This document shows positions 34,201 to 41,861 of a stretch of 64,000 nt of DNA, one piece after another. Origin of the DNA: Protoeuglena noctilucae. Its lineage: Eukaryota. Made by a program: the position numbers and the translations under genes. The DNA is taken from the NCBI GenBank assembly GCA_958009085.1, contig OY253672.1:1364001-1428000 (forward strand). Reading direction: 5' to 3'. The notes below the pieces were generated by a model, which saw nothing but the letters and a program-made list of their open reading frames with translations, searched no databases and was not told the DNA's origin. The first letter of the stretch is position 1; the number at the start of each line of letters is the position of its first letter.

Positions 34201-36602
34201 GTGACGTTCAGGTGCGGGCAGTGGTGCAGCACCTGTCCCCCGGGCTGAGCCGTCATGCGCGATGCCACCGCACCACGGGCACCACGCACACCGCCCTCGT
34301 TGGCGCTGCCGTCTCCGTACATGTCCAGCAGCACCTCGACCGATTGCCGCATGCCCTGCCAGCCGTCCTCCATCCCCATGTGCACGCTGCGAGTGGTGCA
34401 TCGCATCACCCCATGCGTCGCTCACGGTGCGGTGTTAGCCAGCCAGATGAGACCGCAGACTTCGCCCGTCCACAACAGCTTACATTCCCTCACTGCCACG
34501 CACACACTCATCCCCCAACGCGCACAAGTCGTCCACCCCCCCAGCCCCTCACCGGAATGCGTAGTCGTCTGCCACCGCCTGCCGCACCGTCCCCGTCATG
34601 GCGTCGTGGTGCTGCGTCATGGCCACGGCCTCGTCCAGCGACCGCGTCCACCCGCCCTCTGGCATGCGGTCCTCCGCCAGAACCTGACCCAGGGCCTCCA
34701 CCTGCCGGACCACCTGCAGGATGACACGGCACGCCATCTAAGCTGTGATGACACACCGCCCGTCACATACACCCGGGCTGTTCTGTGCATGTGCTGTCAT
34801 TTACAGCCTAATACTTCTTGCATGCTGCGCACCCCGACCCTCTACACACACACACACCCCGCCCCTCACCTGCAGGAACCGCCCCGCGTATCGGAAGTAC
34901 CCCTTGTGCCCCGGTCGGCTGGCAAAGAGCCCCGTCCACACGGCCTGGGGCGCGTCTGCGTACACCGACAGGTCGTCCCTGCCCGCGGGGAGCTGGAAGG
35001 TGGACATGGAGGCGTCGAGCATGGTGGGCGTGGAGTAGAAGGCGTTGTATTCGCCGTCGTTGTTGACGGCGTCGATCAGTCGGTCCAGATTGGCAAAGGC
35101 CGACTCGGCTGCTGCGAAGTAAAAGGGGCCACCAAAAAGGACAGCCAGGTGCTGCTCCCCGAAGGAGGAGGGCTGGTCCTGGGCCAGCTGGGCCACATGG
35201 CGTTTGAAGGCGGCCACGCGGGCAGCGACGTTGCACTCCAGGCGCAGGTAGTCGTCGATCACTGCGATGGGAAGGGGAGGGGAGTGAGACGTGGGCAGGT
35301 GGCAGGGGGGTTCTAATCTCTGCGTCCGTGATGTCGTACTAAGGACTGGGACGTGGGGAGATGGAGGGTGCCATAGCGGCCTTAATAGGGCAGCCAAGGA
35401 TTGCGACGGGAGTGACATGAGCATCACCGCAGCGGCAGGCAATGTCTGGGATAACCTCACCCGGCTCGGCGTCGCCGAACATGAGGTCGAAGTCAAAGCC
35501 ATCCGGCGGGGCGAAACCCCCACTGTGGGACGCGTGGGTGCGCAGCGTCTGCGCCCCGGGCACCGCCTGCCCGCCCTGTCCTCTCAGGTCCCACAGGAAC
35601 GCCAGGGACTTGCGATCCCGCATGGCCTGCAGGACATCATAGCGCGTGCGGCCCAGGAACAAGGAGCGGAGACCCGACCGCCTCAGCAGCGCGGCGCTGG
35701 CGGCGGAGTGGCCGTAAGGGTCCAGCTGCCACCCTGTGTGGGGTTCGAACCCGAGCTCCTCCTTGAGGAAGCGGTGGCCGAGGGTCATCTGGTCCACGAT
35801 GCCCCCGTAGTGGGTCAGCCCCTCGTCGTGCTGCACCCAGCCGCCCCCCGCCACCTCCAGCTGTCCCGCAGCCACGAGTCGCGACAGCAGAGTGTGGTCT
35901 GACTCGGGGCGGTTGTCCCACCACCTCGACAAGAAGGCCACCTGCGTTCAGTAGTGGGACAAGGCAACACAGCTGGGTTGAGCGCCATCATCACCACTGC
36001 CGCTGCCACTGGCACCGCCATCATGTCACAGGTCTGGCATCACAGACGCGCCCCACCTCCCCGATGGTGAACTTGCGCAAGGCATCCCGGCGGAGGGACT
36101 CCACCACGCTGTCGATGGCGTACTGCGCCGACGCCGGAGTGACCGACGCCGCGCTCCCCCAGTAATACTGCTCGAGATTTTTGAGACGCCCGGCATCGAA
36201 GTGGCTGTGGCATATGATGTGGATGTTGATCTTCCCCGGCTGGGGACCGGACACCCGCTTGGCGGCGCCCTGCGGACAGTTGTGCACTTTTGACCGATCC
36301 CGCGCGTTCACTTCAGTCCAACGCGCAGCTCGTGTGGATTTCTTGACACTCTTTGAGGTGTTCGCTTCCATCTCAGCGCGACGGGCCAGCGAGATGTGTC
36401 TCAGCGGCATCGCAAATCAGTTCACGAGCTCAGGCCGGGGCCTCACCGACTCTTGAGCACGGGACGCGATGCCTGTTGGATACCCAGCGTCAGCAATGAG
36501 CGCAGCAGCGGCGACGCACCCAGCGCCGAGCAGGAGAAGCGCGACGAGTGCGTGGTGCCAAAGCGAGGCCGCCAAGCCAGCCCGCGGCCCCCTCCCCCGC
36601 AT
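31209..36602 (-). CDS. GH38 alpha-mannosidase-like protein with a signal peptide and a divergent active site
   Basis: HSHFDAG, GQLEVAGGGWVQHDE, GWQLDPYGHS (nucleophile), VWTGLFASRP, QHHDAMTGT, VVAWNPLAWPR and TDANG motifs. Hydrophobic N-terminal signal peptide. Confidence 0.92.
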
Positions 36603-37013
36603 CGTTGGCGTGTGGCGGCACACGATATGAAATCGTTACGGAATCGCGGCAATATGACTGGAACGAGCCCCTGCGGTCGCGGGAGCGACCCGGCAAGGCT
36701 TCTGCCAGCTGCTCGGGCCCGATGCGAGCGGGACTTGCCACCCCGAGATGAGACACAGTTGCTTGAGAAAGCAAGCTGACGATTGCAGGCTCACAGGCCC
36801 TTTCGTGGGCCCCTAACGGCGTCCATGGCTTGGTGTGTCTGACATTGCAGCACATTTTTGGGCATTCGGCGGCTTAATGTGCGCGCGTGCTTTGTGAAAA
36901 CGACGTTGTCCCAGCCCTCTACGCCCAGCAGTCGGTGGTCGCTCCATCACTGCGCGCTGTGGCAGAGACAGCAAGCCTAAAGGTCTTGCACGCCGGCTTG
37001 CCGCCCATCGGCC

Positions 37014-39320
37014 ATGGCTGGCCCTGAGGGCCCCACAGTGAAGAAGAAGAGAAAGCACAGTTTGCAGGTGGAAGAGTCCGCAGTAAATAAGCGTGCCGGT
37101 GAGCAGCAATTCAGAGTTATATTGTACCAGAGGCTCGCGGCGTTCCGTCGAGTCGCCAAACGTATTGCCTTTGGTCTGTCCCGATTCTTTGTAGGTGGTA
37201 GTGATGGCGGGCGTGGCAAGAAGCGTCGCCGTGGTCGCGGGGCGTCGGGAGGTGCTGGGCCCACCGACCTTGGGAGCGCGCAGGTGATGGCGCCAGCGCC
37301 GCGCTTGCATGCAGGCCGCGCTCTCGCCCTGCACGTGCGGGCGAGGTAATGTTCCCGCTGGAGTGCCTGGTTGTTTCAGTAGCCCGCCCGTCCCTCCCTG
37401 CAGAGCGCTGCGGAGCTGGAGGCCTGGGGCCTGGACCGCCTGTCCCTGGAGTTGACCCTTCGAGGCCTCAAGACCGGCGGCTCTCTCAAGGATCGCGCAA
37501 CGCGGCTGTTCGCCAGCCGGGACACGCCCTGGGCGCAGTGGAAGCCCCGTGACTGGAGTAGCATGGCCAAGCGATGCGTGGAGGCGGTGGCAGCCGAGTG
37601 CGGGTCCCCAGCCGAGGGGCGCATCGAGCGCGGGCGACTGGTGCTAGTGAGTACCCGCCCACACCCTCTACTCTTCTATTGACCCAAATTAAGCTGGGGT
37701 AGGAGTCCGGTGTCGGGCGTTGGTGCCTACGGGCAGCAGTCAGCGCCAGCCTTCCTTCCCGCAGGTGCATTGGGACTCAAAGATGGTGTTCAGTGGCACG
37801 GCGCTCCGGAAGGACGGCAAGCCCTTGCCAGTGGGTCACGTCGACTCTGGCGGGGCGCTTCACGTGGAGTGGCACGAGGAGGGAGGGACTGAGGGTGCCA
37901 GGAAGGACGTGGAAAGCGCCAGGAGCCAAAAGCGCAAGGGCGTTGCGGGTGCTCAAGCCGCGTTGGGATCGGGCGGTCCGAGTGTGGAGGCGGCGACTGC
38001 GGCGGATGAAGAGGCGTCTGCCCCTGCGGTGCGCTTCCCATTCGAGACAGAGGCCGACGATCACTGGTGAGCGTGAGAGAGACCCTTTTAGTCCTTCATG
38101 TGACCTTTGGATGAACAGTCCGGTCGCAGTGGCATGACTGCTGACACTCCACCCCACATAGGCCTCCACCTGTCTGTCAAGGCCACCACCAGAGGTATCA
38201 TTGTTACCCGTCTCCTGGCCATACTTTCTTGCGACCATTTCCACCCTCCTTGCCCTTTCAGCGAGTCCCCATTTGAGGCATATCGCGACGTGGCGACAGT
38301 GCTGGACGTCATTGCTGCCGCCCTGGGCAAGACCCGGGCGGACCTGCGCATCTACGACCCTTACTACTGTTCCGGACGTGTCGTCGAACATTTGGCGTCG
38401 CTGGGGTTCCTCCAAGTGAGCCTCCGCTGGTGGTGCAATGGCGACCGAGGTACGTCACGGGGCATGTTTTGTAACTGCGATGCTGAGATGCGAAAGATTA
38501 AGGATGCGGTACATTCCGCTGCTACAAGCATTGGCCCTGGCACTTTGTCCCCCAGGTGTACAACAAGTGCGAGGATTTCTATGCCGTGGTGGCAGAGGGC
38601 CGCGTGCCAGAATACGATGCCCTGGTGACCAACCCCCCTTACTCGAGGGACCATTTGGAGAGGATCGTACAGTTCTGCGTAACGCAAGACAAGCCCTGGC
38701 TCTTGCTGCTGCCCAACTTCGGTGAGCATGTTGACATGGGCCAGCATGGGCTGCTAGGGGTATCGTATGGTCCAGGTCAGGCGTACACCCTTGTTGCTCG
38801 CCATCCACGCAGTGTACCAGAAGGATTTCTACATGCGCTTGACGGATGCCGAGCGCCCCGCGTACCTCGCCCCACGCAAACGGTACACCTACTGGACGCC
38901 CAAGGCCCTCAAGCGGGGCAAGCACACGCACACGGGTGAGCGCAGGCGTGCGCTTGTACGTCGCAAGTGGCATGTATGGGCCAGCGCCCTCATGACGGTG
39001 ATCCTGAGCCATGCCGGCTTCGGTGGTGGCGTGCAGGCACCATGGGCGAGCGCACGTCTCCCTTTGTCAGTTTCTGGTACCTGGGTCTGAAGAAGCTCAG
39101 GAAGCGCGTGGTTAAGGAGTGGGGCTCGTCCCACAGCACGTGCGCTCTGGCGCCAGACGCGGCTGCGCTGCCGCATGGTGTGATGGACGTGAACGATCCC
39201 AACCGAAAGAGGGCGAAGAACGCGGCGAAGGAAGAGAGGAGGAGGTTGCGCAAGGAGGGCGCGGGGGCAGACCGGGTACGCGGGGTGGGTCGGGAGTCGG
39301 GTGGTGGGGTTGCTGACTAG
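37014..39320 (+). CDS. Putative N6-adenine (amino) methyltransferase with an NPPY motif and an N-terminal SDE2/SF3A3-type SAP domain
   Basis: About 8 exons. SAAELEAWGLDRLSLELTLRGLKTGGSLKDRATRLF (SAP-like), then DDHCESPFEAY, IYDPYYCSG, EDFY, LVTNPPYS, KPWLLLLP and SPFVSFWY. Confidence 0.75.
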
Positions 39321-39740
39321 GGCACACTGTGGCAGCACGACGACACTCTCCACAGCGTGTGGACGCATGAGTGCACGAATTCGTCGTCATTTCGCTTTGA
39401 AAGGCTGCTCCATTGCCGGCGGCCAGCCATGGCACGTTGTGCAAAGCCGAGGAACGCAATCAATAGACAAGCTCCTGCTACGACCGCATGGTGTGGACAA
39501 CACTGCACGCATGGACCTGCGCGTGCTGACGAACTGATCGCAGCCGCCTTGTGCAACGGGGGCCCACGTGGGGCGGCGGTGGCGGGCGCTGTAGGGACGG
39601 TCACGGACGTGGACATGTGCATGCATGGGTCGTCACGGACCAGGGGCGCCCAGGCACCCTAAAAAGACTCAGAAACATAGCTCGGCAAGAAACGAAGCGA
39701 CCCAGGGGGTCACATGGGACTTGCGAGGACGTGTCGGGGA

Positions 39741-41861
39741 TCAGAGGCCCATGCGCTCGTCCACGGTGTGGGCCCTCTCCATGGAGTTCTTGGTGACGCA
39801 GAAGAGCACGAACTCGGCCAGGCTGATCTTGTTGTCCTTGTTCCGGTCCATGCTTTGCACCAGGCTGCGGGCAGCAGGTGCACGATGCATGCTTTACGAA
39901 AGCACTGCTGCTGTGCCACGCACCGCCCCCGCCCGCCCCGCCCCTCGCCTGCTGATCTCCTCACGCCGGGTGTCGCGGTGGCTGTTCTCCGCGCTCATCT
40001 CCTTCATGAGGACCTTTTCGAGCTCCTCGATGCGGATGAACCCGTCGTCGTTGAGGTCGAATATGCTGAAGGCCCGCTTGGCCTCACGGAAGGCGCTGTC
40101 CCCCCGGATGCCCCCGTCTGTCAGCAGGAAGGCCTCGATCGCCACGTATAGCCAGTCGTCCTGCGTCAGCCCCTTCGACGCGTCCACCCCCGCCTTGGAC
40201 AGCATGTCCCGCATCTGCTCCGGCGTCAGCGCGATGCCCTGCGCCTGCAGCACGCGCTCGGCGTCCTCGACCTTCATGCGCCGGGCGTGGTCCGAGAACA
40301 TGTCAAACTCCTCGATCAGCTCCCGGCGCACGTCCTGCAGCGCGTAGTCCTCCCCCACCTGCAGGGAGGGCCCGGGGGACGTGCGGTGAGGCTCACCGCC
40401 GGCTGCGAGATTTGATGTCATCGGCCTAAGCAGCAAACAGGGCGAGTTTGAGCGACACACTCAGCGCCGGCGGTGCATGGATGGCCTCCCACACTGCTGC
40501 GCACGACTCGACTTGCCTCGATGAAGGCGCGCTCGATGGCGCTCGTGAGGGGCACGCCGACCGCCAGCACCACGGGCGACGTCATGATGTTGTCCACGAA
40601 CTCGTCGAGGTCGATCTTGCCGTCCTTGTTGGCGTCGAAGCGCTGCGAAGAAGGACGGGCGTGCCGCTGCTCGTCCACTGGTGGTGCCCGCGTGCCACCA
40701 TGCCACAAGTTCTTCACCCAGGTTGCGGCGGGGCGCCTGCCATTCCATTCGCACACCTGGAGGAACGACTGGACGTTTTTGGCGTCCACATCGATCCCCT
40801 TTGACCTCAGGAAGTTCTCAATGTCCGCCTGCGTGGCGTAGCCGTCCCCATCTGCATGTGCGTAAGTGCGTTGGAGCGCCCGTCATGTGTAATGGTTAGG
40901 GTTAGGGGAAAGATGTGCAAGGCGTTCAATACATTCCGACCCGGCCCGGCCGTGCACGTTCACGCCGCGCAGCACCGGCGCTCACCCATGTCGAACCGTG
41001 CAAACTCCCGCTTCACTTTGGAGAGGAAGTCGGCGTCGACTTGCCGCATGATGACCTTGAGCACCTCCAGGAACGTGAGCGTCTTCTCCCCCGGCTTCAA
41101 GGCGCTCTTGAACAGCTCCTGCGCCTGGTCCTTCTCCTTCTCTGTGGCATCGGTCCACGCGTTGCCGAAGAGGAGGTGCAGGTACTGTGGCACCTGCGAG
41201 CGGGACGCCGGGTGCGCCACGCCGATGACGCGTCCCGTGCGCGATGCGTCGCGACGGGCGCTTGGAAGGGGCAGGTGCGCGCGGACGGAGCGGGCTTGCC
41301 TTGGCGAGCGAGAGGGTGTTGTCCGCCTCGCAGAGCTTCTCGAAGATGGCCCGCGCTCGCATGCGCTGCGCCTGGTCCAGAATCACGCCACTCATGCTGC
41401 TGAGCTGCGAGCGAGGAGACGTGCGGGGGGCGTGCGGGCACACTCGCATGCATGACGTCGAGGGAGGCTGCCAACGGACCGTGTGGTCTCCCCGGGCGAG
41501 ACCGACGAGGTGCCCTTGCAACTCCCATCGTATCAGCTTCCGTGTAAGGCAGGCGGGCGTCCCGAGCCAGCGTTTGCGCGAGAACTCGCAAAAACCCCTA
41601 ACCGCACTTCCCAGGCGTTGTGCGTCGCGCACAGCACGCGATGGCCGCGACGCGCCGCCGTCGCCTCCCAATCACCTCCATTTGCAGCTTGGTGCGGGCG
41701 CCGGCGAGCATCTTGCGCCGATCGATCGAGTCATCCGGGCCGGGCATGGTCGTCGCGGTTCCAGCGGTCCGTAAAGAGCCGTTAGCACTGCCCTTGGTAG
41801 ATGGCTCCTTTCTCTGCGTGGAAGTGGTCTCGTCGGGCACTTTGCTTGCGCAGCCGCCCAT
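39741..41861 (-). CDS. Multi-EF-hand calcium-binding protein with an N-terminal acylation motif
   Basis: Starts MGGCASK. EF loops DMDGDGYATQAD, DANKDGKIDLDE, DLNDDGFIRIEE and DRNKDNKISLAE lie over about 7 exons. Confidence 0.88.

Follow-up and report, generated by a model that had tools for sequence, protein, structure and literature searches.

The window analyzed here (64,000 nucleotides of contig OY253672.1 from Protoeuglena noctilucae, to which all coordinates below refer) carries one nuclear gene, at 37014-39320 of the plus strand, the host being a marine green alga of high GC content. Its product combines two basic tracts resembling nuclear localization signals, an SDE2-type SAP domain, a small beta module and, behind an acidic linker, a compact class-I methyltransferase (MTase) with the motif NPPY. 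The gene is real, is expressed and comprises eight exons. A preliminary description of the sequence had read this locus as an adenine MTase resembling those of phages and giant viruses, joined to a SAP module, and that reading is supported in part. We are confident of the identity of the gene and of its domains, and consider it probable, to a somewhat lesser degree, that the enzyme methylates adenine N6 in a nucleic acid.

Gene structure and transcript evidence

The gene model was built by reading positions 36500-39900 together with the stop-to-stop frames, and joining the eight exons by script yields a spliced product of 1446 nt that encodes 481 amino acids and ends in one terminal stop. All seven introns are of the GT..AG type, with sizes of 96, 120, 118, 195, 140, 91 and 101 nt. 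The 5' untranslated region covers at least 36931-37013, 36931 being the position at which an RNA contig begins; an in-frame stop lies just 5' of 36981 and the next ATG is that at 37014. Exon 1 (37014-37098) holds the start codon and the basic tract KKKRK (37041-37055, residue 10 of the product), and exon 2 (37195-37283) is rich in Gly and Arg and contains the second tract, KKRRR (37218-37232, residue 37). Exon 3 (37404-37646), as placed by the spliced model, encodes in its first part the SAP domain (37404-37550, residues 59-107, with the SAP string at residues 59-94) and then the first strand of the beta module. This module (37614-37872, residues ~129-175), delimited by alignment to the relatives P0076 and P0106, has five strands and is interrupted by intron 3 (37647-37764). 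Exon 4 (37765-38066) completes it and continues through an acidic, low-complexity linker into the start of the MTase (motif X, DDHCESPFEAY, residue 237).

The adenine-N6 MTase core (38035-39089, residues ~230-405) is spread over exons 4-8 and interrupted by introns 4-7. Exon 5 (38262-38415) contains the end of motif X and the putative motif I for binding S-adenosylmethionine (SAM), IYDPYYCSG (residue 270); exon 6 (38556-38721) contains EDFY (residue 297), the catalytic motif IV NPPY (38631-38642, within VTNPPY at residue 315) and KPWLLLLP (residue 337), its assignment being backed by these motifs and by a match to the phage family phrog_799. Exon 7 (38813-38935), supported by alignment and RNA, encodes a conserved RY.YW.P strand region, and exon 8 (39037-39320), supported by alignment and in part by RNA, encodes the SPFVSFWY strand (residue 395), a conserved LP..MDV.DP.R tail, a basic C-terminus and the TAG stop (39318-39320). 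Every motif listed in the preliminary description is thus present in the spliced product, with NPPY at the nucleotides claimed for it. The product aligns without a break to its relatives over residues ~220-480, with E values down to 3e-74, across junctions 4/5 to 7/8, and junction 3/4 is crossed by the alignment to P0076.

Transcript evidence was drawn from assembled contigs of four marine metatranscriptome runs (X1-X4), all from one study, which contain between 0.28 and 0.50 of the sampled words of the window; their contigs were compared with positions 36900-39500. One X1 contig of 1479 nt runs from 36931 to 39270 with 0 mismatches and 0 gaps and joins all eight exons at the junctions of the model, so that the SAP exon and the MTase exons stand in one spliced RNA contig. 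Subsets of the same joints recur in X2, X3 and X4 contigs: in particular, 37098|37195 and 37283|37404 are found in both X1 and X2 contigs, and the joints flanking exons 4 and 5 are likewise present in RNA. The proposal of a single intron-bearing gene therefore survives a search for transcripts that would separate the two sets of exons. Intron 1 (37099-37194) is 96 nt long, in frame and free of stops, and its retention would add 32 residues; it is removed in both RNA contigs that span it.

At the 3' end, no RNA contig of the four runs covers 39273-39385, the contigs of the gene ending at 39246-39272, and the final ~50 nt of the coding sequence (39271-39320), with the last ~16 codons and the TAG stop, follow from the gene model, beyond the RNA cover. 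A sequence GTACGC at 39276 could be another donor. One X2 contig uses a different donor inside intron 5, 38449|GTACGT, joining about 38447/9 to 38554/6 and skipping 106 nt instead of 140. The resulting extension of exon 5 (38416-38449) would add 34 nt and shift the frame, and may represent a minor unproductive isoform or an effect of assembly.

The methyltransferase and its family

Profile searches place the MTase outside the common models. Exons 4-8 lie outside every Pfam family apart from a faint match to Eco57I (E 0.15), which reaches 12.6 bits with exon 6 of the window and 18.5-18.9 bits in two of 67 relatives, in all cases below the cut-off of 25.3; Pfam N6_Mtase has no match in the window exons or in the relatives. 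A search with exon 6 returned 85 longer relatives, 31-69% identical to that exon and devoid of precomputed Pfam domains. From the family an alignment of 52 sequences (A1) was assembled, the profile of which recovers 2692 clusters (50% identity) at E <= 1e-3 and 1093 at E <= 1e-30 among 1.84 billion representatives, and has no match at E <= 10 among the sequences of the Protein Data Bank (PDB). The window protein retains 19 of the 19 invariant and 29 of the 31 near-invariant columns of A1, and hence the MTase looks catalytically intact.

The MTase had been proposed to be distinct from the MT-A70 family, and this is borne out: MT-A70 (PF05063) matches neither the window exons nor any of 200 relatives, and the motif is NPPY. 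The MT-A70 writers (METTL3/14, METTL4, AMT1) share with the window protein a predicted SAM-dependent N6-adenine methylation in eukaryotic nuclei, but they belong to another family, with DPPW in place of NPPY and a different order of motifs. Membership in a characterized protein-MTase family, also looked for by profile, was not found; among NCBIfam models there is a faint PrmC trace in one of eight relatives (TIGR03534, 12.4 bits against a cut-off of 199.1).

For structural comparison, the relative P0010 (43% identity) was modelled by AF2 with A1, giving a pLDDT of 89.6 and a pTM of 0.82. Foldseek matches of this model to the PDB were weak (four at E <= 0.001, with TM <= 0.37), and VIA-align against 48,161 representative chains was relied on instead. 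In this comparison adenine-N6 MTases rank at the top: a putative class-I SAM MTase from Listeria (2f8l, 11.4, 3.2 Å over 161 positions), PH1948 (1wy7, 11.0), METTL5 (6h2u, 10.7), MmeI (5hr4, 10.5), DrdV (7lo5, 10.4) and TaqI (1aqi, 10.2, 3.3 Å over 156 positions), with the protein glutamine MTase Mtq2 below these at 8.7. When the best 1000 chains of Foldseek were re-examined, the best 50 rows were all DNA or ribosomal RNA (rRNA) adenine-N6 MTases. These results uphold the assignment to the NPPY amino-MTases with a class-I fold and set P0010 nearest to the nucleic-acid adenine-N6 enzymes. DNA and RNA enzymes are tied in the ranking, however, so that the fold leaves the choice of substrate undecided.

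By the P0010 comparison, the fold of the catalytic domain is shared with the gamma-class DNA N6-adenine MTases (M.TaqI, CamA, M.BseCI, MmeI/DrdV and type I HsdM), at 10-17% identity. Unlike these, the window MTase has no target-recognition domain, Eco57I stays below cut-off and the PDB yields no match by sequence profile. In the P0010 model only short helices are predicted after the core, and the structure matches span residues ~8-222. In the same model, no strand is predicted between residues 66-67 and 88-91. To METTL5/PH1948 and to the Dim1/KsgA/Erm rRNA adenine MTases there is no detectable sequence relationship, and an N-terminal DH.ET helix and a C-terminal strand region are found in the window family only.

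The MTase belongs, as judged from its sequence, to a family already described in silico, the CHLREDRAFT_205675-like clade 3 of the Group-2 (M.EcoKI/M.TaqI-like) N6-adenine MTases, typified by that Chlamydomonas protein (Iyer, Zhang, Aravind, BioEssays 2016; PMC4738411). A comparison by eye with the published clade-3 alignment finds DH.ET, IYDP[YF][YF]C.G (IYDPFFC.G), DFY, TNPPYS, KPW.LLLPN(YV) and the strand 6-7 region in common, and the missing strand of the P0010 model agrees with the 'Str-3 lost' noted for the clade. According to that work, clade 3 can be found widely among eukaryotic microbes, often as two paralogues that might dimerize in the manner of METTL3-METTL14, its members being listed from chlorophytes, cryptophytes, diatoms, a brown alga, haptophytes, kinetoplastids, Perkinsus and Symbiodinium, with bacterial cognates on conjugative elements (PMC4738411). 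The window family agrees with this in its spread, which takes in chlorophytes, cryptophytes, stramenopiles, haptophytes and kinetoplastids. The window contains one copy of the family within its 64 kb. With the MTase family already published, no new enzyme class is involved; what is new is the domain architecture, in which an SDE2-type SAP domain at the N-terminus and a small beta module are added to a known kind of enzyme. In the supplement of PMC4738411 no SAP is listed for the type member or for the further chlorophyte entries examined, and the string 'SAP+N6-MTase' is absent; the sole SAP entry there is an Aureococcus model of 3593 residues, 'DUF501+N6-MTase+SAP'. Within reach of our literature searches, no bench characterization of clade 3 was found, CHLREDRAFT_205675 was named in PMC4738411 alone, six other gene identifiers of the family went unmentioned, and nothing relevant linked SDE2 or its SAP domain to a methyltransferase in Chlamydomonas.

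The resemblance to phage and giant-virus enzymes noted at the outset can be retained in part. Of eight relatives, six match the phage family phrog_799 ('DNA methyltransferase') with E values between 4.2e-8 and 1.7e-5 and two with 0.022-0.089, and window exon 6 alone matches at E 0.0041, a link that points to remote homology rather than clear membership. A scan of viral contigs gave 126 pattern matches, including a single relative, in IMG/VR (L001), the 166-residue open reading frame (ORF) of which is a strong member of phrog_799 (E 3.7e-18) and matches A1 by hhalign with a probability of 98.2% (E 5.8e-14); it differs from the window protein in having NIPF for NPPY and no appended domains. On this 4.7-kb contig (216-716, 740-1489) an adjoining ORF shows a weak match to a terminase large subunit (phrog_2666, E 3.3e-5), and a 591-residue ORF follows for which no family match was found. 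No match to P0010 was obtained by tblastn among 50,697 phage records, and an A1 scan of prokaryote genome contigs gave 30 pattern matches and 0 relatives, the published cognates on conjugative elements being thus not confirmed. Hence, the likeness to phage enzymes stands at the level of remote homology, whereas no close phage match and no giant-virus MTase relative was recovered in these searches. As for the further suggestion of a domesticated gene, the broad and ancient spread of the family in microbial eukaryotes makes its recent domestication from a virus look unlikely.

SAP domain, beta module and domain architecture

Exon 3 opens with 49 residues that score 54.2 bits with Pfam PF13297 (SDE2_2C), the cut-off of which is 26.6 (E 1.4e-14). 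Sequence comparison with solved structures relates them to the human SDE2 SAP domain (7n99_A, E 3.8e-7), SDE2 in spliceosomes (8c6j_z, E 5.3e-6) and residues 253-290 of human SF3A3 (5z56_w, E 5.2e-4), in agreement with the SDE2/SF3A3-type SAP module recognized in the preliminary description. The helix-loop-helix signature LE.LGL.+L..EL..RGLK.GG.L..RA.RLF is common to the three proteins. Its placement differs, however, being C-terminal in SDE2, internal in SF3A3 and N-terminal to an enzyme in the window protein. This SAP type has been described as common to SDE2 and SF3A3 only; the SDE2 SAP domain prefers single-stranded DNA (ssDNA), and the SAP domain and C-terminal tail (CTT) of SF3A3 are required for chromatin binding (PMC9399289). 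Preferential binding of ssDNA through SAP and CTT is established there for the human proteins only, in which it needs a lysine-bearing CTT.

The beta module, ~50 residues long, is placed after the SAP domain and ahead of the MTase, with the pattern h.VEGV..D..L.LVD......VY.......G...R.G.WD across the exon 3/4 junction. Among the 199 relatives with an N-terminal part of 40 residues or more, a crude regular expression for this pattern picks out 13, and a profile of ten modules (A2) retrieved 24 proteins, 14 of them new, with ten of these 14 also bearing the MTase. The AF2 model of the module of P0106 has five strands, with a pLDDT of ~90 over residues 8-57. Its nearest predicted look-alikes (Atlas) are uncharacterized giant-virus proteins, with TM 0.53-0.68 over ~50 residues; matches in BFVD lie at E 0.04-0.16, none at E <= 0.001. 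Such look-alikes occur in giant-virus proteins with SNF2 helicase, AT-hook or DNA-MTase domains, which is a weak hint in favour of a role on DNA. A module-bearing subfamily of 527-546 residues (P0273-P0278, P0280 and P0157) has in addition a conserved acidic motif, DLSRFD..S.DE.DF.ARVRA.E, upstream of the module.

The combination of module and MTase with the SAP domain was seen in one of the 200 relatives scanned. In Pfam scans SDE2_2C was found in none of 67 relatives and in one of a further 133, the sole case being P0106, an NCBI protein of Pedinophyceae sp. YPF-701 (E 4.5e-20). P0106 aligns with residues 44-464 of the window product at 38% identity (E 4e-83), with the order SAP, beta module, MTase preserved. 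A search with the exon-3 peptide among longer proteins scored none of 852 candidates, by a shared-word method that missed even P0106.

A quick tree of 70 rows was built from a set of 161 unique cores, taking the 19 cores that bear the module, one in three of the remaining 142, and six named rows. In this tree P0106 is the closest neighbour of the window protein (path 0.9), which falls within a group of 17 rows, 15 of them with the module; support for this group is not strong (SH-aLRT 81). The SAP fusion may have arisen once.

Residues 453-699 of P0106 form an Fpg/Nei part after the MTase (Fapy_DNA_glyco, E 5.4e-22; H2TH, E 1.3e-21), which begins at position 28 of the 117 in the profile and lacks its N-terminus. 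The N-terminal proline is the nucleophile of Fpg/Nei enzymes. With the N-terminus that would carry this proline missing, the Fpg part was rejected as evidence for a role on DNA, and it is probably the product of two neighbouring genes merged by the gene caller.

Candidate substrates, significance and genomic context

As presently explained, adenine methylation in eukaryotes is the work of MT-A70 enzymes where DNA and mRNA are concerned, and of METTL5, METTL16, ZCCHC4 and PCIF1 for other RNAs. The family to which the window protein belongs is large, conserved and catalytically intact by sequence, and has neither a Pfam model nor bench data in the literature searched; a member fused to an ssDNA-preferring type of SAP domain offers a concrete, testable handle on its function. 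It seems reasonable to postulate, as the best explanation overall and at about an even chance, that the protein is a SAP-tethered MTase writing N6-methyladenine (6mA) on single-stranded or unwound DNA. As regards the substrate taken by itself, DNA is slightly favoured, falling a little short of an even chance, and RNA is a tentative second.

In such an enzyme the basic tracts would direct nuclear import, SAM would be held by motif I (IYDPYYCSG) and the ED of EDFY, and a flipped-out adenine would enter the NPPY pocket to be methylated at N6. Because there is no target-recognition domain, the site of action would be set by the appended modules. A tether to chromatin is the role expected of the SAP domain by analogy with human SDE2 and SF3A3, in which this domain prefers ssDNA and mediates chromatin association. 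Rather than bulk 6mA on duplex DNA, the enzyme would then write 6mA on single-stranded or unwound stretches, for example at repair intermediates, forks or transcription bubbles. What we count in favour of DNA are these two properties of the human SAP domains, the annotation of phage and bacterial relatives as DNA MTases, and the association of look-alikes of the beta module with DNA-related domains.

Several points weigh against a DNA writer. Robust genomic 6mA has been reported only in species that encode AMT1 (PMC12695648), so that no second bulk DNA writer is needed. Clade 3 is often fused to CCCH or KH domains, and RNA methylation has been predicted for a subset of its members (PMC4738411); in our own scans CCCH domains were detected in sister members (P0096, E 8.9e-7, and three weaker cases). 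SDE2 and SF3A3 are themselves spliceosome proteins, and the structural comparison was made on P0010 in place of the window protein.

An RNA writer is a possible if tentative explanation, in which the SAP domain and the basic tracts would dock the enzyme on chromatin or on a ribonucleoprotein of the U2/spliceosome type, where nascent mRNA or small nuclear RNA (snRNA) would receive N6-methyladenosine (m6A) co-transcriptionally. Its function would then resemble that of METTL16 or METTL5, on an unrelated scaffold. The two other carriers known for this SAP type are spliceosomal (8c6j_z, 5z56_w; PMC9399289), CCCH fusions are seen in relatives, CCCH and KH fusions and a predicted RNA-methylating subset are described for clade 3 (PMC4738411), robust genomic 6mA is accounted for by AMT1, and the enzyme, which lacks a target-recognition domain, is compact in the way of METTL5 and Dim1. 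On the other hand, the SAP domain of SDE2 showed a preference for ssDNA and no complex of recombinant SDE2 with RNA formed in vitro, while in a solved post-catalytic spliceosome the contacts come from the N-terminal part of SDE2 and not from its SAP domain (PMC9399289). Furthermore, the window member carries neither CCCH nor KH, and its relatives in prokaryotes and phages bear the annotation of DNA MTases (phrog_799; PMC4738411).

An enzyme without activity on nucleic acids, that is, a protein (Gln/Lys) MTase using the NPPY pocket like HemK/Mtq2, or else an inactive partner of, or scaffold for, a paralogue, is improbable. The frequent occurrence of two paralogues in the family, possibly forming a dimer like METTL3-METTL14 (PMC4738411), would suit a silent partner, but all invariant catalytic and SAM-binding positions are kept in the window protein. 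As to a protein MTase, the PrmC trace falls far below its cut-off (12.4 bits against 199) and none appears among the best 50 structure rows of Foldseek's best 1000 chains; moreover, the domains appended across the family bind nucleic acids. Finally, that the fusion is an artefact of two neighbouring genes, or a recent viral insertion, is very improbable indeed: the SAP domain occurs in only one of 200 scanned relatives and that relative, P0106, is a suspicious gene model with its truncated Fpg part, but all exons are joined in one RNA contig free of mismatches, the SAP domain shares exon 3 with the first strand of a module that continues in exon 4, P0106 aligns in the same order from SAP to MTase, and a viral insertion is at odds with seven spliceosomal introns, host-gene neighbours and a uniform GC content.

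Returning to the reading of a SAP-tethered DNA writer, it can be set in a wider frame, which we regard as unlikely. Green algae and other protists would run a second, MT-A70-independent system of adenine methylation, in which a TaqI-like MTase without recognition domain is steered by swappable modules that bind single strands, an SDE2-type SAP domain here and CCCH or KH domains in paralogues. With a SAP domain, the enzyme would place 6mA on the ssDNA of forks, R-loops or repair sites, or else m6A on spliceosomal RNA, docking at the places used by SDE2 and SF3A3. The family offers candidates for lineages that have m6A and no known writer. In particular, kinetoplastid members are listed in the supplement of PMC4738411, and a 2025 review enters 'None known' for the m6A writers of trypanosomes (PMC12905994); were the second system real, these members would be candidates for the missing trypanosome writer. 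Should the enzyme prove to be yet another methylase of rRNA or snRNA, the finding would be an ordinary one.

The genomic surroundings are uniform, with a GC content of 0.61-0.73 per 2 kb across the window and introns resembling those of green algae. By their family matches, the neighbours are ordinary host genes. Upstream, the N-terminal piece of a family-38 glycosyl hydrolase (GH38) lies on the minus strand at 36021-36416 (E 1e-5). Downstream, a convergent EF-hand gene occupies 39741-40882 on the minus strand, with a match to EF-hand_7 at E 4.6e-8 and several further EF-hand pieces. RNA contigs of higher depth that begin at 39385-39391 and continue past 39500 probably belong to this convergent gene.

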